Positions 6,626-44,912 of a stretch of DNA of 51,341 bases are shown here, piece by piece; within the stretch, counting starts at the first letter, position 1; the number at the start of each line of letters is the position of its first letter. Position numbers and translations under genes: made by a program. The notes beneath the pieces were generated by a model that saw nothing but the letters and a program-made list of their open reading frames with translations, was not told the DNA's origin and did no database searches. The DNA is from Clostridia bacterium. Lineage in GTDB: Bacteria > Bacillota > Clostridia > TANB77 > CAG-508. The DNA is taken from the NCBI GenBank assembly GCA_045602065.1, contig JAZSAX010000094.1, positions 1 to 51,341 on the forward strand, in the 5' to 3' direction.

Positions 6626-8413
6626 ATGACAGAGGAAAAGAATGTTCCTATAGAGACAACAGGAACAAACACAGAAAAAAAACAAAACACACGTAAAAAA
6701 CAAACACCAAGAGGAAAAAGAACAAGAAGTTCACAAAATCAAGAAATATTTAAAAAATCAAATATTAAGATAATTCCATTAGGTGGATTACATGAAGTTG
6801 GTAAAAATATAACAGTATTTGAATATGAAGATGAAATTATAGTAGTAGACTGTGGAATTTCATTTCCAGAAGATGATATGTTAGGTATAGATTTAGTAAT
6901 ACCTGATGTAACATATCTATTAAAAAATCAAGAAAAGATTAAAGGAATGATAATAACACATGGTCACGAAGACCATATAGGAGGAATTCCATATTTCCTA
7001 AAACAAATAAATGTGCCAATATATGCAACAAGACTTGCAGCAGGTTTAATAAGTAATAAACTTGAAGAACACAAATTATTAAGAAGTACAGAAATGCATA
7101 TAGTAACACAAGGACAAACAATAAAATTAGGAAATAACTTCAAAATTGAATTTATAAGAAGTTCACATAGTATACCAGATTCAGTAATGTTAGCAATTAC
7201 AACACCAACAGGAACTATATTACACACAGGGGACTTCAAAGTCGATTATACTCCAATAGATGGACAAATTATGGATTTAGGAAGAATTGCAGAAATTGGG
7301 CAAAAAGGAATACTAGCATTAATGTCAGATAGTACAAACGCTGAAAGAAAAGGATTTACAATGTCTGAAAGATCAGTTGGAGATGTATTTGATAAATTAT
7401 TCTTAAACTGTACAAAAAGAATTGTAGTAGCAACATTTGCATCAAATGTACACAGAATCCAACAAATTGTGAATTCAGCAGTTAAATATGGCAGAAAAAT
7501 AGCTGTATGTGGAAGAAGTATGATAAACATTATATCAACATCAATAGAATTAGGATATATCAAATGTCCAGAAAATTTATTTATTGATATAGATATGATA
7601 GGAAGTTATACAGATGACCAGCTTGTAATAATAACAACAGGAAGCCAAGGAGAACCAATGTCAGCATTAACAAGAATGGCTGCAGGTGACCACAGAAAAG
7701 TGAAAATAACGCCAAATGATTTAATAATAATATCAGCAACACCAATTCCAGGAAACGAAAAATATGTTTCAAAAGTAATTGATGATTTAATGCAATTAGG
7801 TGCAGAAGTTGTATATAGCGCATTAGCAGATATACATGTATCTGGACATGCTTGCCAAGAAGAACAAAAATTGATAATGGCATTAGCAAAACCTAAATAT
7901 TTTATACCAGTTCATGGTGAATATAGACAATTAAGAGCACATGCTGAAACAGCGCAACTTATGGGGATTGACAAAGATGACATATTCATGTTGACAAATG
8001 GTAGAGTATTAGAAATGAATGAAAATGAAGCAAAATTCAATGGTTCAGTACCAAGTGGAAGAATATTAGTAGATGGTTTAGGTGTTGGAGATGTTGGAAA
8101 TATTGTTTTAAGAGACAGACAACATTTAGCACAAGATGGATTAATAGTAATTGTATTGACAATGGATTCATCAACAGGTGAAGTAGTTGCAGGCCCTGAT
8201 GTAATATCAAGAGGATTTGTTTATGTAAGAGAATCTGAAAATTTAATGGATGATGTAAAAAGTGTGGTAAAACACGAAATTTCAAAATGTGAACAAAGAG
8301 GAATTCGTGATTGGTCAACTATAAAATCAACAGTAAAAGAAAATTTACGTGATTATATATTTATAAAAACAAAGAGAAATCCAATGATAATTCCAATAAT
8401 AATGGAAGTTTAA
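6626..8413 (+). CDS. rnj: Ribonuclease J (beta-CASP metallo-beta-lactamase) with a basic N-terminal extension
   Basis: KIIPLGGLHEVGKNITVFEY and the HxHxDH motif ITHGHEDHIGG are present, with a beta-CASP and C-terminal domain across the full length. The first 45 or so aa are K/R/T-rich and precede the canonical start of the fold. Confidence 0.93.
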   Translation: MTEEKNVPIETTGTNTEKKQNTRKKQTPRGKRTRSSQNQEIFKKSNIKIIPLGGLHEVGKNITVFEYEDEIIVVDCGISFPEDDMLGIDLVIPDVTYLLKNQEKIKGMIITHGHEDHIGGIPYFLKQINVPIYATRLAAGLISNKLEEHKLLRSTEMHIVTQGQTIKLGNNFKIEFIRSSHSIPDSVMLAITTPTGTILHTGDFKVDYTPIDGQIMDLGRIAEIGQKGILALMSDSTNAERKGFTMSERSVGDVFDKLFLNCTKRIVVATFASNVHRIQQIVNSAVKYGRKIAVCGRSMINIISTSIELGYIKCPENLFIDIDMIGSYTDDQLVIITTGSQGEPMSALTRMAAGDHRKVKITPNDLIIISATPIPGNEKYVSKVIDDLMQLGAEVVYSALADIHVSGHACQEEQKLIMALAKPKYFIPVHGEYRQLRAHAETAQLMGIDKDDIFMLTNGRVLEMNENEAKFNGSVPSGRILVDGLGVGDVGNIVLRDRQHLAQDGLIVIVLTMDSSTGEVVAGPDVISRGFVYVRESENLMDDVKSVVKHEISKCEQRGIRDWSTIKSTVKENLRDYIFIKTKRNPMIIPIIMEV

Positions 8414-8440
8414 TTGTTACCATGGGGACCCATGCCTATA

Positions 8441-9649
8441 ATGGTAAGAGAGGATGTAGAATTGAATAAAGAATTTTTAGAACAAATAGAAAAAGAATTT
8501 TTGATAAGAAGAATAAAGACAGCAACTGTAATATCTTCAGGAAATGTTAATTCGACATATAGAATAGAGGCTGATGGTGCAAATTATATTTTACAAAAAG
8601 TAAATAAATTTGTATTTAAAAAACCAGAAGAAGTAATGCAAAATATAAGAAGAGTTAGTAGATTTTTAGAAAATAAAGTATTAAAAGAAGGGGGTAATCC
8701 TCAAAGAGAAGTATTACACCCAATAGATACTTTGAATGGAAGTCGATTTGTGATAGATTCTGATGGTGAATATTGGAGAATGTATGACTTAATAGATGGG
8801 GCTGTTACTTATGATACAATTGACAGTGAAAAAATGTTTTATAAAGTGGGTCAAGCTTTTGGAAGATTTCAAAATAGGCTTGTAGATTATGATACAGATA
8901 CTTTACATGAAGCAATTCCAGATTTTCATAATACACCAAAAAGATTTACAGATTTTCAAATAGCTATTGTTGCTGATAAAGCTGGAAGACTTGAAAAGAT
9001 AAAAGGACAGCCAAATCATCCTCTTAAAAAAGCAATTGATTATATTTTAAGCCAGGAAGATGAGTTAAGACTAATTGAAGTTGGTAAATTATCTGGAAAG
9101 CTACCAATAAGAGTAACACATAATGACACTAAAATTAATAATGTAATGATTGATAAACAAACAGGAGAACCAATATGTATCATTGACCTAGATACAGTAG
9201 GACCTGATTCAAGTTTAGTAGATTTTGGAGATGCAATACGTTCAGGAGCTAATAGAGCTGGCGAAGAACCAGAACAATTAGATGATGCTAAATTAGACAT
9301 GGATTTATTTAGAGCATATACAAAAGGATATTTATCACAAACTTTATTAGTAGATGAAAAAGGAAATATAAATAATATCCCACAAAAAGGACTAACACAA
9401 GAAGAAATACAATTATTACACAAAGCTCCAAAAATATTAACTCTAGAATTGTCAATGAGATTTTTAGAAGATTATTTAAATGGAGACGAATATTTTAAAT
9501 TAAAGCCAAATCAGCCGGAAGATATTAATTTACGAAGAGGGCTTACACAAATGTATTTAGCACAAGATATGGCTTCAAAAGAAGCAGAGATGAGAAAAAT
9601 TGTAGATGCAATTGTTGTTGAAAAAATAAAATCTGAAGAAGAAAGATAG
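8441..9649 (+). CDS. APH-family sugar kinase, N-acetylhexosamine 1-kinase (NahK/LnpB)-like
   Basis: RVTHNDTKINNVMID, IIDLDTVGPDSSLVDFGDAIRSGAN, FHNTPKRFTDFQ and MRFLEDYLNGDEYF closely parallel the Bifidobacterium NahK sequence as I recall it. The start is uncertain: the track gives TTG 8414, ATG 8441 is used here, and TTG 8462 is also possible. Confidence 0.75.
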   Translation: MVREDVELNKEFLEQIEKEFLIRRIKTATVISSGNVNSTYRIEADGANYILQKVNKFVFKKPEEVMQNIRRVSRFLENKVLKEGGNPQREVLHPIDTLNGSRFVIDSDGEYWRMYDLIDGAVTYDTIDSEKMFYKVGQAFGRFQNRLVDYDTDTLHEAIPDFHNTPKRFTDFQIAIVADKAGRLEKIKGQPNHPLKKAIDYILSQEDELRLIEVGKLSGKLPIRVTHNDTKINNVMIDKQTGEPICIIDLDTVGPDSSLVDFGDAIRSGANRAGEEPEQLDDAKLDMDLFRAYTKGYLSQTLLVDEKGNINNIPQKGLTQEEIQLLHKAPKILTLELSMRFLEDYLNGDEYFKLKPNQPEDINLRRGLTQMYLAQDMASKEAEMRKIVDAIVVEKIKSEEER

Positions 9650-11738: not shown

Positions 11739-13367
11739 ATGAAACTAAATAATAACAAAAAAATATTTATTATAACATTAATGGCAATACTTTTTATAAT
11801 TATATTTAATGTGAAAGTATATGCAGAAAATGAGCCATTTACATTATCTGCAGAGAGTAAAGAAGTACGCTTAAATGGTACAACTTACCTTTACTATACT
11901 GGAGGCGATTATAGTGAAAAAGTAACATGGTCAAGTAGTGATGAGAGTGTAGCAACTGTAGATGGTGGAAAAATAACAGGTCTAAAAATAGGAACAACTA
12001 CAATAACAGCTACTAGAGGAAATGAAACTGATTCTTGTGAAGTTAACGTAGTATATTCATTGATTCAAATTGGTGGAAATTCGAGCAATAATATAACTTC
12101 AGTAAATTTAGTATTAAATGAACATGATACTGAAAATTTATATGCAACAGTAGAAGATGATGATTACGTAGAAGTTCAAAACGCAGAAGTAAAATGGGAG
12201 AGCAGTAATCCAAGCATAGTTACAGTTAATGAAAATACAGGAACTATTACAGCGGTTAGTGCAGGAACAGCTACAATAACTGCATCAGCAGCAGGTGTAT
12301 CTGACACTTGTAATGTAACAGTTGTAAATGGACCAAAATTCACAGACTTTTCTAATGCAAAATATGAATTACTTTATGACTTTGAGGTAGATTTGAAAAT
12401 TGCAGATGTTAATCCAAATGATGAAAATAGTTACTACTATATAATAACTTCTAGTAATACAAAGCCAGAAATATCAACAACTTCATACGGAGCACTTGAT
12501 ACAGAGAAGGTAACAGATGCTACTTACTTAAGTGTTAATATAGAGGACAATTATATATATGCAAGAAATTTAGATAGATATGCAGAACTAAATCAAGATT
12601 TATATTTATGGGTAATTGAAGATATTAGATTAGAGGCTTCATATGCTAAAGATGAAGAAAATAATATTTCACATTCTACAAAATTTGTAGTAGAAGGAGA
12701 AAAATTAACAAGGCCAGAATTGCCACAATTAAACTTAATATTACAGACAATTAACATTGGACACTGGGCAAATGATACAACTGGTGAAAATTCTAATTAT
12801 ACTTATATAAATTTTAATTTTCCAACAGAACAGGAAAATAGAAAGTTTACATTAAAAATAGGTAAAGTTACAGATATTAATATATTAACAAAAATTCAAA
12901 ACAATGATTATTCTGGAATAACAGAACTATTGTCTTATGCAAAAAATAATGAAGCAGTGTTTTCAAAAACATTAACAACAACAAGTGCAGCATATTTTAG
13001 AAGTGATGATACTTTATTTGACGGAAATGCCTTGTTAGAAGATGATGCATATTATTTTATTTATGCACAATTTGATGATGAAAATGGTAAATATTATCCA
13101 ATAGAAGGTGTTACTTTAGGACAAGCTTGGAAATCAAATAGTGATTCAAACTGGTGGGACTTATGGGCTTATACTTCAGATAACTTTGATTGGAATAACT
13201 TAAAACCATCTAATACTCCTACCGAGCCAAAACCTGAAGATCCAACAGTAGCACCATCAGTAATACCAAATGCGGGAAATAAAACTGTAATTGCTATGGT
13301 AGCATTTGTTGCAATAGTTAGTGTAATACTATATAAAAAATACAACAAATTTAGTGATATAAAATAA
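11739..13367 (+). CDS. Secreted/surface protein with two N-terminal Big_2 (bacterial Ig-like group 2) domains and a C-terminal IPNAG-TM-YKKY anchor module
   Basis: It has a signal peptide (MKLNNNKKIFIITLMAILFIIIFNVKVYA) and Big_2 signatures (VTWSSSDESVATVDGGKITGLKIGTTTITAT; VKWESSNPSIVTVNENTGTITAVSAGTATITA). The C-terminal 34 aa are IPNAG, a hydrophobic stretch, then YKKYNKFSDIK. Confidence 0.85.
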   Translation: MKLNNNKKIFIITLMAILFIIIFNVKVYAENEPFTLSAESKEVRLNGTTYLYYTGGDYSEKVTWSSSDESVATVDGGKITGLKIGTTTITATRGNETDSCEVNVVYSLIQIGGNSSNNITSVNLVLNEHDTENLYATVEDDDYVEVQNAEVKWESSNPSIVTVNENTGTITAVSAGTATITASAAGVSDTCNVTVVNGPKFTDFSNAKYELLYDFEVDLKIADVNPNDENSYYYIITSSNTKPEISTTSYGALDTEKVTDATYLSVNIEDNYIYARNLDRYAELNQDLYLWVIEDIRLEASYAKDEENNISHSTKFVVEGEKLTRPELPQLNLILQTINIGHWANDTTGENSNYTYINFNFPTEQENRKFTLKIGKVTDINILTKIQNNDYSGITELLSYAKNNEAVFSKTLTTTSAAYFRSDDTLFDGNALLEDDAYYFIYAQFDDENGKYYPIEGVTLGQAWKSNSDSNWWDLWAYTSDNFDWNNLKPSNTPTEPKPEDPTVAPSVIPNAGNKTVIAMVAFVAIVSVILYKKYNKFSDIK

Positions 13368-13382
13368 TAAAAAATGAGGAAT

Positions 13383-13982
13383 TTATTCCTCATTTTTTTT
13401 GTTAATGTATTGTTCAATTATTTCCCAGACATCATCACTATAAACTTTTCTTTCAGAAGAGAAAGGGAGAGTAGGAATATCTCCAATAGGATTTAACTGT
13501 TTTTGAATGTTTTTACAAGTTTCATCAACTTTAGTTTTTGCAATTTTGTCAGCCTTATTAGTTAGAATGATACAAGGTAAACCACTTCTAATAACATAAT
13601 CATACATTAAGAAATCATTTGAAGTAGGGTCATGTCTAATATCAACTAAAAAGATGATAAGACAAATTTCTTTTCTGTGAGCTAAGTAATGTTCGATAAA
13701 TTCACCAACTTTAACTTGTTCTTGTTTAGACATCTTACTATATCCATAACCAGGTAAATCTACAAAATAAAATAAGTTATCCATATTATAAAAATTAAGT
13801 TGACGAGTTTTACCAGGTTCACTGCTTGTACGAGCTAATTTTTTTCTATTAATCATTGTATTAACAAAACTTGATTTTCCAACATTAGATTTTCCAACTA
13901 AAACAACTTCTGGTAAACCATTTTTGGGATATTGATTTTCTCTAACAGCTGAAACTTCAAATTGTGGATTTTTTATTATCAT
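13383..13982 (-). CDS. engB: Ribosome biogenesis GTPase EngB/YsxC
   Basis: G motifs are present (GKSNVGKSS, DLPGYG, TNKADK). The start is set at MIIKNPQFE, where AAAGGA lies 9 nt upstream. The track's start at 14000 abuts the terminator. Confidence 0.9.
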   Translation of the reverse strand: MIIKNPQFEVSAVRENQYPKNGLPEVVLVGKSNVGKSSFVNTMINRKKLARTSSEPGKTRQLNFYNMDNLFYFVDLPGYGYSKMSKQEQVKVGEFIEHYLAHRKEICLIIFLVDIRHDPTSNDFLMYDYVIRSGLPCIILTNKADKIAKTKVDETCKNIQKQLNPIGDIPTLPFSSERKVYSDDVWEIIEQYINKKNEE

Positions 13983-14000
13983 AATTTTTAGTCCTTTCAT

Positions 14001-41684: not shown

Positions 41685-44600
41685 ATGAAAAAGTTTTTGA
41701 AAAAACAAATTGTAATAATAGCATTAATAATGTTTTTTATTTTGCCGATAATTACTATCGCAAATAGTGAAACATATTTAGAATTAGTGCCTAAAAAATC
41801 AGCTTCATATGAACAATGGGAGAAATTAGACAAAGAGGAAAAAAACACAATAATTCCACCAACATATATTGATATAAATTTTAAAGATAGCATAAAAAGA
41901 TCAAAATATAATCAATATATACTAAAAAGTGAAGAGGAAGGAACTTCTTCATACAATTTAAAAACGGAATTGGCTAAAAGTAATATAGGTATATATGTAA
42001 AAAATCAACAACAAACAGGATCTTGTTGGGCATTCTCGTTTTCAAATATGATAGAGACAACAATTGCAAATAAATTTAAAAGAACAGTAAAAGAATATTC
42101 TCCAATGCATATAGATTATATGGCAGGGGCGTTATATAATAGAATAGTAGGTGATGGAGGAAACTATTTAATGGCATTAGCTTACGGGACATCTGGTTTG
42201 GGACCTGTATATGAAGAGGATTTTTCTTTTGAGAGTGTTTATGATGAAGTCGAAAATAGTTCACAACCATATTTCTTAACTAATATTAGTAATGTGCAAT
42301 TAGATAAAGAAGCAAAAGCTAGAATAAAAGATGCAACTATATTTGCGCCAATATATAAAAGTTATTCAACAAATTCTATAACATATAAAGATAGTAGTGC
42401 GTGGATAGGATATAATGAATATGAACCAGAAGAAGTTCAAGCGCTAAGACTACTGGTAAAAGAACATATAAAAGAAAACGGAGCAATTACAGCTATGATG
42501 TATACAAATAGTGGCAATATAACAAGTATGTACAATAGTACTACAAAAGCATTTTTTAATAATAGTAGTTTTTCTAATCCGGATCATGCTGTAACAATAG
42601 TAGGATGGGATGATACTTTCCCAAAAGAGAATTTTTTGGAAGGCAAAAGACCTATAAATGATGGTGCATATATAGTACTAAATTCTTGGGGAGAAGAATT
42701 TGGAGATTCAGGGTATTTCTATATATCTTATGATGATGCTGTTATAGAGCAAGATTTATGTGGAATTGTTGATATATCTGAAAAAGAAGATGAAGAAGAC
42801 TCTTATGACAATATATACGCATATGATGAATTGGGTGCAAATTACTCGGTGTATGTAATAAATGATGAGGGAACCCAATATTTAGATAGCGGATATGCTG
42901 CAAGTGTTTTTTCAAGAGAATCTAAACAATCAACTGAATATTTATCAGAAATTGGAATATTCTTATTTAGTGCACATGGAATAGAAATATACGTAAATCC
43001 TAATGATGGTAAATTAGAAGATTGTGAATTGGTTGCTACATTTACAGCTACACAAGCATTAGAAGGTGGATACCATTCATTAAAATTATCATCTCCGATA
43101 CAATTAACTGGTGACAATTTTGCAATTAAAATAAAATATATAAACTCAACAAGAACAGAAATACCGCTAGAATATAATGGTTATGCTAGTGGTTCGGCTG
43201 AGGAGGATGATCCTTATGCTACAGCAACAGCATCTCCAAATGAAAGTTTCATTTCTTTTAATGGCACAGTATGGTCTGACTTAGATGACTATAGTAAAAC
43301 GTATTATGCGGGAACTAGTGACGAGACAACTATTGTATTAAAAGATACAAGTGCATGTATCAAAGCCTTTACAACATTAAGTGAAGGAACAACAACGGTG
43401 CCAGTAACAGGAGTAACATTAGATAAAGAAACAGTAACAATAAAAGAAGAAGAAACAGAAACATTAGTAGCAACAGTAACGCCAGAAAATGCAACAAATC
43501 AAAATATAACATGGTCAAGTAATAATCAAAGTGTAGCAACAGTAGCAAATGGAGTAGTAACAGGAGTATCAGAAGGAACAGCAACAATAACAGTAACAAC
43601 ACAAGATGGAAACTTTACAGATACATGTGTTGTAACAGTAGAAGAAAAAGTTGTAACACCACCAACAGTAGCAGTAACAGGGGTGACATTAAATAAAGAA
43701 ACAGTAACAATAAAAGAAGAAGGAACAACAACATTAGTAGCAACAGTAATGCCAGAAAACGCAACAAATCAAAATGTAACATGGTCAAGTAGTGATAATA
43801 CAATAGCAACAGTAGAAAATGGCGTAGTAACAGGAGTATCAGCAGGAACAGCAACAATAACAGTAACAACACAAGATGGAAGCTTTACAGATACATGTGT
43901 TGTAACAGTAGAAGAAAAAGTTGCAACACCAACAACAGTAGCAGTAACAGGAGTAACACTAAATAAAGAAACAGTAACAATAAAAGAAGAAGAAACAACA
44001 ACACTAGTAGCAACAGTAACGCCAGAAAATGCAACAAACCAAAATGTAACATGGTCAAGTAGTGCTGAAAGTGTAGCAACAGTAGCAAATGGAGTAGTAA
44101 CAGGAGTATCAGAAGGAACAGCAACAATAACAGTAACAACACAAGATGGAAACTTTACAGATACATGTGTTGTAACAGTAGAAGAAAAAGTTGTAACACC
44201 AACAACAGTGCCAGTAACAGGAGTAACATTAGATAAAGAAACAGTAACAGTAAAAGAAGAAGAAACAGAAACATTAGTAGCAACAGTAATGCCAGAAAAT
44301 GCAACAAACAAAAATATAACATGGTCAAGTAATAATGAAAGTGTAGCAACAGTGGCAAATGGAGTAGTAACAGGATTATCAGCAGGAACAGCAACAATAA
44401 CAGTAACAACACAAGATGGAAGTTTCACAGATACATGTGTTGTGACAGTAGAAGAAGCAGTTTTATCAGTAAAAGTAACAGGAATTGAACTTGATAAAAC
44501 AGAATTAAAAATGCAAGTTAGTGAAAAAACAAATTTAGTGGCAACAATAAAGCCAACAAATGCAACAAATAAAGAGGTAGTATGGACAAGTTCAAATACA

Positions 44601-44912
44601 GATGTTGCTACAATATCAGAAAATGGTATAATAGAAGCATTAAAAACAGGGAAAACAACCATAACAGTAACAACAAAAGATGGAAATTATAAAGCAACTT
44701 GTAAAATAACTGTTTCAGAAAAAACAAACAATGATGATGATATTTATGCAGAAAAAGAACCAGGAAAAATTGAAGAAGGTAAAGATACAACAATCATTGA
44801 TGGAAATATTCCAAATGCAGGATTACAAACTCTTATGATGGTATTAATTATAGTTGCAATAATAGTATTTGTAACATATAAAAAGTATAAAACATTTGAA
44901 GATATAAAATAA
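41685..44912 (+). CDS. Secreted papain-family (C1) cysteine peptidase fused to five Big_2 repeats and a C-terminal IPNAG-TM-YKKY anchor module
   Basis: It has a signal peptide. Catalytic motifs are QQQTGSCWAFS (Cys), DHAVTIVGWDD (His) and NSWGEEFGDSGYFYISY (Asn). Five Big_2 units follow (VTGVTL.KETVT...ATNQNVTWSS...ATV.NGVVTGVS.GTATITVTT). The C-terminal 34 aa are IPNAG, a hydrophobic stretch, then YKKYKTFEDIK. Confidence 0.88.
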   Translation: MKKFLKKQIVIIALIMFFILPIITIANSETYLELVPKKSASYEQWEKLDKEEKNTIIPPTYIDINFKDSIKRSKYNQYILKSEEEGTSSYNLKTELAKSNIGIYVKNQQQTGSCWAFSFSNMIETTIANKFKRTVKEYSPMHIDYMAGALYNRIVGDGGNYLMALAYGTSGLGPVYEEDFSFESVYDEVENSSQPYFLTNISNVQLDKEAKARIKDATIFAPIYKSYSTNSITYKDSSAWIGYNEYEPEEVQALRLLVKEHIKENGAITAMMYTNSGNITSMYNSTTKAFFNNSSFSNPDHAVTIVGWDDTFPKENFLEGKRPINDGAYIVLNSWGEEFGDSGYFYISYDDAVIEQDLCGIVDISEKEDEEDSYDNIYAYDELGANYSVYVINDEGTQYLDSGYAASVFSRESKQSTEYLSEIGIFLFSAHGIEIYVNPNDGKLEDCELVATFTATQALEGGYHSLKLSSPIQLTGDNFAIKIKYINSTRTEIPLEYNGYASGSAEEDDPYATATASPNESFISFNGTVWSDLDDYSKTYYAGTSDETTIVLKDTSACIKAFTTLSEGTTTVPVTGVTLDKETVTIKEEETETLVATVTPENATNQNITWSSNNQSVATVANGVVTGVSEGTATITVTTQDGNFTDTCVVTVEEKVVTPPTVAVTGVTLNKETVTIKEEGTTTLVATVMPENATNQNVTWSSSDNTIATVENGVVTGVSAGTATITVTTQDGSFTDTCVVTVEEKVATPTTVAVTGVTLNKETVTIKEEETTTLVATVTPENATNQNVTWSSSAESVATVANGVVTGVSEGTATITVTTQDGNFTDTCVVTVEEKVVTPTTVPVTGVTLDKETVTVKEEETETLVATVMPENATNKNITWSSNNESVATVANGVVTGLSAGTATITVTTQDGSFTDTCVVTVEEAVLSVKVTGIELDKTELKMQVSEKTNLVATIKPTNATNKEVVWTSSNTDVATISENGIIEALKTGKTTITVTTKDGNYKATCKITVSEKTNNDDDIYAEKEPGKIEEGKDTTIIDGNIPNAGLQTLMMVLIIVAIIVFVTYKKYKTFEDIK
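43398..44477 (+). repeat. Four in-frame tandem 270-nt (90-aa) near-identical Big_2 repeat units; a fifth diverged unit follows to about 44720
   Basis: GTGCCAGTAACAGGAGTAACATTAGATAAAGAAACAGTAACA occurs at 43398 and again at 44208, which is 3 x 270 nt apart. The units start at 43398, 43668, 43938 and 44208. Confidence 0.9.

Follow-up and report, generated by a model that had tools for sequence, protein, structure and literature searches.

A probable family-specific variant of the LPXTG sortase signal on surface proteins of uncultured gut Clostridia

The window analysed here, a contig of 51,341 nucleotides from a Clostridia genome, encodes two secreted proteins, one with immunoglobulin-like domains (protein 1) and one of the papain family (protein 2), that share a C-terminal module consisting of the pentapeptide IPNAG, a hydrophobic segment and a basic tail. 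Sequence comparisons make it very likely that this tail is a family-specific variant of the LPXTG sortase cell-wall signal, used by a family of uncultured gut Clostridia (CAG-508 type). The module does not amount to a novel type of sorting system, and the known mechanism of sortase anchoring is unchanged. Signals of the form LPXAG (SasF of Staphylococcus aureus) and IPNTG (BcpB of Bacillus cereus) are already known; what is new is the conservation of the flanks, the failure of standard models to recognise the window copies, and a sub-clade of three species in which 14 of 14 sampled signals carry Ala at the fourth position.

The strongest single argument for IPxAG as a sortase motif comes from a gene pair on another contig (C69) of the source genome, G000. 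Here a sortase gene (positions 4694-4038, minus strand) starts 4 bases past the stop codon of a gene whose product ends in the module, with the pentapeptide IPHAG. Twelve related loci with a C69-type sortase were collected from species-representative genomes (Clostridium sp. CAG:508 and metagenome-assembled genomes of uncultured Clostridia or Clostridium, from human, rabbit and mouse gut), and the substrate-sortase pair is kept in ten of them. The ten paired substrates, signal-peptide proteins encoded upstream, carry LPYTG, LPQTG (several), LPATG, LPKTG, MPQTG, IPYTG or IPKAG between the same flanks. Since one sortase type is thus paired with Thr or Ala at position 4 and with Leu, Ile or Met at position 1, IPxAG itself is probably read as a sortase motif.

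The source organism is uncultured and known only from metagenome assemblies; G000 comprises 1.31 Mb in 113 contigs (30% G+C, estimated 96% complete), of which the window is contig C94. This genome was scanned in two ways: six-frame translations were searched for P-x-[ASTG]-G with a hydrophobic stretch behind it and a stop codon close by, and C-termini were searched for all hydrophobic segments that lead into a basic tail. The scans yield six proteins of one kind, where an earlier interpretation of the window made without database searches (the sequence-only reading) had noticed two. All six have an N-terminal signal peptide, and position 4 of the motif is Ala in every one; no canonical LPXTG-anchored protein was found in G000 by these scans. 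In the window itself, a six-frame scan finds two IPNAG tails, those of proteins 1 and 2. Coordinates are collected in Table 1.

Table 1. Features of the window, and genes of G000 that carry the module. Locations without a contig prefix refer to the window.
Feature	Location	Strand	Motif or sequence	Basis or remark
Promoter-like site 5' of protein 1 gene	11683-11710
Gene for 542-residue secreted surface protein (protein 1)	11739..13367	+		Open reading frame list, Pfam
N-terminal Sec-type signal peptide, protein 1	11739..11825	+	MKLNNNKKIFIITLMAILFIIIFNVKVYA then ENE	Read from translation
Pre-motif, copy 1 (Asp -8, Thr -6, Ala -4 relative to pentapeptide)	13239..13262	+	DPTVAPSV	Conserved among relatives
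Pentapeptide, copy 1, LPXTG variant; predicted scissile bond Ala-Gly	13263..13277	+	IPNAG	Translation
Hydrophobic membrane-spanning segment, copy 1, 18 residues	13278..13331	+	NKTVIAMVAFVAIVSVIL	Hydropathy scan of open reading frame C-termini
Basic cytoplasmic tail, copy 1	13332..13364	+	YKKYNKFSDIK	Family tail pattern
Bidirectional terminator-like hairpin	13369..13398	.		13-pair stem, T-runs on both strands
Gene for 1075-residue secreted papain-family protein (protein 2): Peptidase_C1, five Big_2 domains, module copy 2	41685..44912	+		Pfam
Pre-motif, copy 2 (Asp -8, Thr -6)	44784..44807	+	DTTIIDGN
Pentapeptide, copy 2	44808..44822	+	IPNAG
Hydrophobic segment, copy 2, 18 residues	44823..44876	+	LQTLMMVLIIVAIIVFVT	Translation, hydropathy scan
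Basic tail, copy 2	44877..44909	+	YKKYKTFEDIK
Module-bearing genes, window copies	C94, two genes		IPNAG x2
Module-bearing gene	C50:27033-27728		LPKAG
Module-bearing gene	C69:6338-4698	-	IPHAG	Adjoins sortase
Module-bearing gene, vWA-type protein	C88, true start MKKKIALMV...		IPDAG
Module-bearing gene, 112-residue protein	C99:6452-6790		LPHAG

Protein 1 comprises a signal peptide, two Big_2 immunoglobulin-like domains (Pfam, E=4.8e-20), an uncharacterised region of ~300 residues and the module; no significant relative of its residues 201-500 was found in the PDB. By inspection, the signal peptide has a basic n-region, a hydrophobic core and a cleavage-like VYA site. With its own promoter-like site and a terminator-like hairpin, which lies between it and a convergent minus-strand open reading frame (13383-14000), the gene looks monocistronic. 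The signal peptide of protein 2, again by inspection of the translation, is MKKFLKKQIVIIALIMFFILPIITIAN, followed by SET. A full-length orthologue of protein 2 in genome G004 (49% identity) ends in IPYAG, and a relative in G013, matching residues 4-582 with 42% identity, ends in LPNTG; relatives of protein 1 carry LPYTG in G005 and LPKAG in G003.

Translation of 13263-13364 and 44808-44909, both on the plus strand, gives IPNAGNKTVIAMVAFVAIVSVILYKKYNKFSDIK and IPNAGLQTLMMVLIIVAIIVFVTYKKYKTFEDIK respectively, each followed by a stop codon. Both tails are therefore 34 residues long from IPNAG to the stop, as the sequence-only reading had stated, and an independent position-by-position count returned its figure of 17 identical residues out of 34. 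Asp -8 and Thr -6 are also common to the two copies. Their DNA agrees at 85 of 147 columns, so the two are not the product of a recent duplication; they are old copies that evolve separately. A word-indexed homologue search limited to the last 47 residues matched only the protein itself; the shortness and simplicity of the tail put it beyond the reach of such a search, and profile searches of genomes were therefore used.

These searches define a module of ~49 residues with the consensus D-x-T-x-A-x-G-K, [L/I/M]-P-x-[T/A]-G, ~18-20 hydrophobic residues and [Y/F]-x-K-Y-x-K-[F/L/Y]-x-[D/N/G]-I-(K). In 66 tails compiled from G000, 17 other genomes of the same genus and the related loci, position 1 of the pentapeptide is Leu in 51, Ile in 13 and Met in 2, and position 4 is Thr in 36 and Ala in 30; the distance from motif to stop is most often 34 residues. 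Conservation begins 8 residues upstream of the pentapeptide, outside the segment that had first been delimited, with Asp -8 (41/66 tails) and Thr -6 (40/66), as well as Ala -4 and Gly-Lys at -2/-1. In three alignments (A1, A3 and A5) Pro2 and Gly5 never vary, and in the latter two neither does Asp -8.

The same pattern emerges on a global scale. A profile built from 12 tails, taken from the window and the related loci only, was searched against 1.84 billion protein cluster representatives and matched 1574 of them at E<=0.001 (93 at E<=1e-10). Among the best 150 matches, P0123 is the sole exception to a position of the module at or within ~5 residues of the C-terminus, and 147 of the 150 have a recognisable pentapeptide; within the 147, Asp -8 is present in 143 and Thr or Ser -6 in 144, and the motif stands 34 (67 proteins) or 35 residues (60) from the end, together 127 of the 147. 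Position 4 is Thr in 121 and Ala in 25, a ratio biased towards Thr because the query profile was mostly of the Thr type. The consensus motif of the family in this search is LPQTG, and the module also ends small proteins of 55-140 residues and vWA proteins. The sequence-only reading had thought the tail beyond the basic residues unusual, and it is indeed conserved as a trait of the lineage. Both pre-motif and tail probably enlarge the recognition signal or serve retention, having diverged in step with the sortases of the family.

Within the class Clostridia the module is restricted to a single family. It is present in 18/18 sampled genomes of the same genus, and a 49-position profile (from alignment A3) matches, at E<=1e-4, all 52 sampled genomes of the window's family, which represent 14 genera; outside this family, in the four remaining families of the order, 6 of 98 genomes match, several of them on short contigs. 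When 300 genomes were drawn evenly from the class, the profile matched 7/7 genomes of the family and, at E<=1e-5 among the limited number of candidates scored in each genome, none of the ~293 genomes of ~75 other families. This distribution bears on the simplest alternative, namely that the shared tails are a compositional or chance effect of an AT-rich genome or stem from a recent local duplication of two genes. The low G+C content and a tail dominated by Lys, Asn, Tyr, Ile and Phe, which have AT-rich codons, are in its favour; it is refuted by the six copies in the genome, by the presence of the module in every sampled genome of the family, as against none of the ~293 others of the class, and by the divergence of the window copies at the DNA level, and its probability is negligible.

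Sortases follow largely the same boundaries. With PF04203, six sortase genes of G000 exceed the curated cut-off (contigs C14, C69, C55, C28, C31 and C103); none was found on the window contig. The C55-type sortase, with a conserved N-terminus (MNQILVTEKIY...), occurs in 60/60 sampled genomes of the family, mostly as full-length matches with 40-55% identity, and the C31 type occurs in 59/60; neither has an adjacent substrate. The other families of the order have mostly few or no sortases, and we conclude that the module and the sortase repertoire travel together. Co-occurrence of a processing enzyme, proposed earlier as a check, is thus borne out, and the claim of a lineage-specific variant of a sortase signal is supported, given the six sortases, the C69 substrate-sortase pair and the restriction of the module to one family; a module limited to two proteins, a recent duplication and a lack of sortases, each of which was expected to overturn that claim, are contradicted by the number of carriers, the age of the copies and the presence of sortases. 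The exosortase-like system offered as an alternative is rejected: family PF09721 has no match at E<=0.1 in G000, and a control genome was positive.

Several observations weigh against a sortase signal. Neither window tail gives any match to TIGR01167 (LPXTG_anchor, cut-off 15.9 bits) or PF00746 (Gram_pos_anchor, cut-off 20 bits); Ala at the scissile position makes a poor substrate for the prototype enzyme, S. aureus SrtA; and the five sortases of G000 that are not of class B reach none of the curated class cut-offs (C, D, E and F), so that enzymes and substrates cannot be paired by class rules. Assignment of the G000 sortases to classes A-F was attempted and fails, with scores far below the cut-offs, save for the C103 enzyme, which is of class B by TIGR03064 (159.2 bits, cut-off 153.75).

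The absence of any score for the window tails from the standard LPXTG models, together with a hydrophobic segment and basic tail that would suffice for anchoring, favours a plain membrane anchor, in which the proteins would remain uncleaved as type I membrane proteins and IPNAG would be a conserved juxtamembrane linker. Such an explanation sits poorly with the invariance of Pro2 and Gly5 at a constant distance (34-35 residues) from the end of hundreds of otherwise unrelated proteins, and with a module that co-distributes with sortases and adjoins one in a conserved gene pair. Homologous tails with a canonical LPxTG do, moreover, reach TIGR01167. Out of 35 tails from the family, 14 match this model at E<=0.015, which is about its cut-off; in G000 the C50 and C88 tails pass (17.8 and 17.3 bits), with C99 at 13.9; PF00746 gave nothing significant on the G000 tails. 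We therefore regard a plain anchor as improbable.

It is slightly less probable still that the module serves the polymerisation of pili or fibres by a pilin-type (class C-like) sortase instead of direct anchoring to the wall. Class C is the best curated model for the C69, C55 and C31 sortases, the C69 pair resembles a pilin operon, and Ile1 recalls the IPNTG of BcpB, which is cleaved only by a pilin sortase (PMC8225981). The class C scores are, however, well below the cut-off (at most 70.9 against 160 bits), which no sortase reaches; neither a sortase nor a pilin accompanies the window genes on their 51-kb contig; a C1 protease that carries Big_2 domains does not resemble a pilin; and small proteins of 55-140 residues and vWA proteins carry the module too.

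Direct anchoring to the wall by a sortase thus remains the preferred reading of the window tails. In the mechanism that we infer from known sortase chemistry, each protein would be exported by Sec and retained in the membrane by its hydrophobic segment and basic tail; a membrane sortase would cut IPNAG between Ala4 and Gly5, forming a thioester with Ala, and would pass the protein to a peptidoglycan precursor, so that the Big_2 protein, like the C1 protease, would be held on the wall by a covalent bond and displayed there. The stretches whose cleavage by a C55-, C31- or C69-type sortase is predicted are DPTVAPSVIPNAGNK and DPTVAPSVIPNAGNKT. The most likely enzyme for the window proteins is the C55 type (C55:22823-23575) or the C31 type (C31:7383-8060), since these proteins have no adjoining sortase and both types are near-universal in the family.

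Distinct differences in the use of Thr and Ala are seen within the genus. By a wide margin, the closest sampled relatives of G000, judged by the identity of seryl-tRNA synthetase, are G003 (88%) and G004 (87%), followed by G016 (77%) and the rest near 70%. In these three genomes every sampled signal carries Ala4 (6/6 in G000, 5/5 in G003 and 3/3 in G004), and Ile is found at position 1 in 9 of the 14, compared with 2 of 45 tabulated in other genomes of the genus. A profile made from Thr-type tails only detects no additional Thr-type module in G000, G003 or G004 and readily finds such modules in G015 and G016. The small 112-residue protein has LPxAG only in the sub-clade, and LPxTG in ten other sampled species. 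Elsewhere species are all-Thr (G015, 4/4; G009, 3/3) or mixed (G017, seven Ala and two Thr), and from their coexistence the enzymes of the family evidently tolerate both residues. Thr/Ala usage is over-dispersed among genomes (permutation p ~0.0005, in a test that ignores relatedness and uses sampled, not complete, sets). Any change from Thr to Ala in the sub-clade would need an A-to-G substitution, which runs counter to the AT bias expected at 30% G+C.

The G015 orthologue of the 112-residue protein (L085, G015:C9:12932-13487) departs from the motif in another way: it has LAKTG, with Ala at position 2, in place of LPKTG, and an unchanged tail (YSYKKVNDYKKI).

The all-Ala state could be the extreme of drift, or it could reflect a shift in specificity. 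In the latter case all substrates of the sub-clade would have been rewritten from LPxTG to [I/L]PxAG because the housekeeping sortase had come to prefer or require Ala, an explanation that we consider tentative and on balance rather unlikely. The candidate for a shifted enzyme is possibly the C55 type, which may also read the D-x-T pre-motif. Comparison of the sub-clade enzymes (G000 C55:22823-23575, L092 from G003 and L099 from G004) with L111, L104 and L121 shows that Ala replaces Gly just before the catalytic His, and that one residue is inserted after it: beside the His, the sub-clade has CIIAHNYRRKGVFF where the relatives have CI[VA]GHNYRN..-FF or, over a slightly longer stretch, CIIAHNYRRKGVFFSD in place of CI[VA]GHNYRN[SK][KR]-FFSK. 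These sequence differences are real but are confounded with phylogeny, the three species being close relatives, and we treat them as a lead. A second signal appears to have been altered as well. The 340-residue protein encoded beside the C14-type sortase (C14:2240-3262, minus strand) has LPITYDS in G000, G003 (L079) and G004 (L080), compared with LPITGDS and LPITGDN in the two copies of G015 (L078 and L086); the Gly-to-Tyr change at position 5 is thus kept throughout the sub-clade.

Other putative signals and sortases of these genomes deserve mention. The gene directly following the C28-type sortase (7887-8444, minus strand) in G000 encodes a secreted protein of ~410 residues (C28:6655-8004, minus strand) with a thioester-like YC...TKQAVY motif and a Cna_B-like domain. 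It ends in ...ELPKLPVTGM and a stop codon, with no hydrophobic segment downstream in any frame, and thus has an LPXTG motif without a membrane anchor; this neighbour is not kept beside the orthologous sortase in G003, G004 or G015. The class B sortase (C103:9927-10721) is preceded, in the region C103:8403-10721, by a protein of 486 residues that ends in ...DETPKMGEMNISFVWATLAVIALVGIATTKKVSKHSK, and a protein of 1459 residues (C50:6860-11239) has a C-terminus of TPPTG, a membrane segment and KKKVLTK. Both tails are possible class B-type TP-x-[T/M]-G signals, which resemble the (S/P)PXTG motif of Clostridioides difficile. Two giant proteins, of 1520 (C8:14398-18960) and 1751 residues (C50:1599-6854), carry a proline-less [I/V]-S-T-G-[A/G] just before the C-terminal membrane segment, in the stretches AISTGAIKTYF... 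and LVSTGGGSTIAY... A sortase type ending in ...YTCYPFNNIGYATQRYVVYAELEK gives the top PF04203 scores in relatives (L090 in G003, L098 in G004, L114 in G013 and L120 in G009) and was not found in the G000 assembly, with its 113 contigs and 96% completeness.

Neither window protein is recognised by the standard LPXTG models, which also fail on ~60% of the tested tails of the family, and the wall-anchored surface proteome of a common gut family, including proteases, immunoglobulin-like adhesins and vWA proteins, is therefore probably under-called. A dedicated 49-position profile recovers the module specifically, and the 1574 cluster representatives indicate its reach. The family also offers a natural series in which the sortase types are conserved while the scissile-site residue drifts from species to species between Thr and Ala, and position 1 among Leu, Ile and Met. 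One sub-clade has settled on Ala, and the series is a tractable case of signal-enzyme co-evolution. If the shift in specificity were true, the sub-clade would hold a natural Ala-specific sortase, orthogonal to the LPXTG enzymes, and the altered specificity of this enzyme would make it attractive for protein-ligation chemistry.

With the LPXTG signals in general the module shares the tripartite layout, Pro2 and Gly5, the hydrophobic segment, the basic tail at the extreme C-terminus, the signal peptide on its carriers and the presence of sortases. It differs in the D-x-T-x-A-x-G-K pre-motif and in a long, positionally conserved tail in place of a short basic run; the G000 tails, moreover, always have Ala4 and often Ile1, and both window copies combine the two. 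The literature library that was searched has no paper linking CAG-508 with sortase, and no existing NCBIfam model covers the module. The nearest precedent is Rumino_NPXTG (NF033846), likewise a taxon-restricted sub-family of sortase signal that merits its own profile, on which the IPHAG tail scores 13.2 bits against a cut-off of 23.5. Among solved structures, the nearest relative of the C69 sortase, itself below all curated class cut-offs, is PDB 4d70 (deposited as 'sortase family protein'; E=1.3e-11), a distant relative that we take to be SrtD of Clostridium perfringens, with a preference for LPQTGS.

Both features of the window pentapeptide have counterparts in known systems. The IPNTG of the B. 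cereus minor pilin BcpB, correctly cited in the sequence-only reading, belongs to the bcpA-srtD-bcpB pilus operon (PMC8225981) and shares Ile1 and Asn3 with the window motif, from which it differs in having Thr4; unlike bcpB, the window genes lie next to neither a sortase nor a pilin gene. Ala4 is found in two S. aureus proteins (SasF and SasD) with LPXAG, compared with 19 LPxTG proteins (PMC3436756), and in two proteins of Streptococcus uberis (SUB0207 and SUB0241), where the motif is 'occasionally LPX(A/S)G' (PMC2657157). SasF, with LPKAG, is associated with the wall in S. aureus, and the staphylococcal SssF-like orthologues have Thr at position 4 in four cases, Ala in five and Ser in one (PMC3398289). 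These proteins share with the module both Ala4 and the interchange of Thr and Ala among orthologues, without homology of the window proteins to SasF. In S. aureus, however, LPXAG is a rare exception, whereas in the sub-clade that includes the window Ala is the rule for all 14 sampled signals and is joined by Ile1 and by family-specific flanks.

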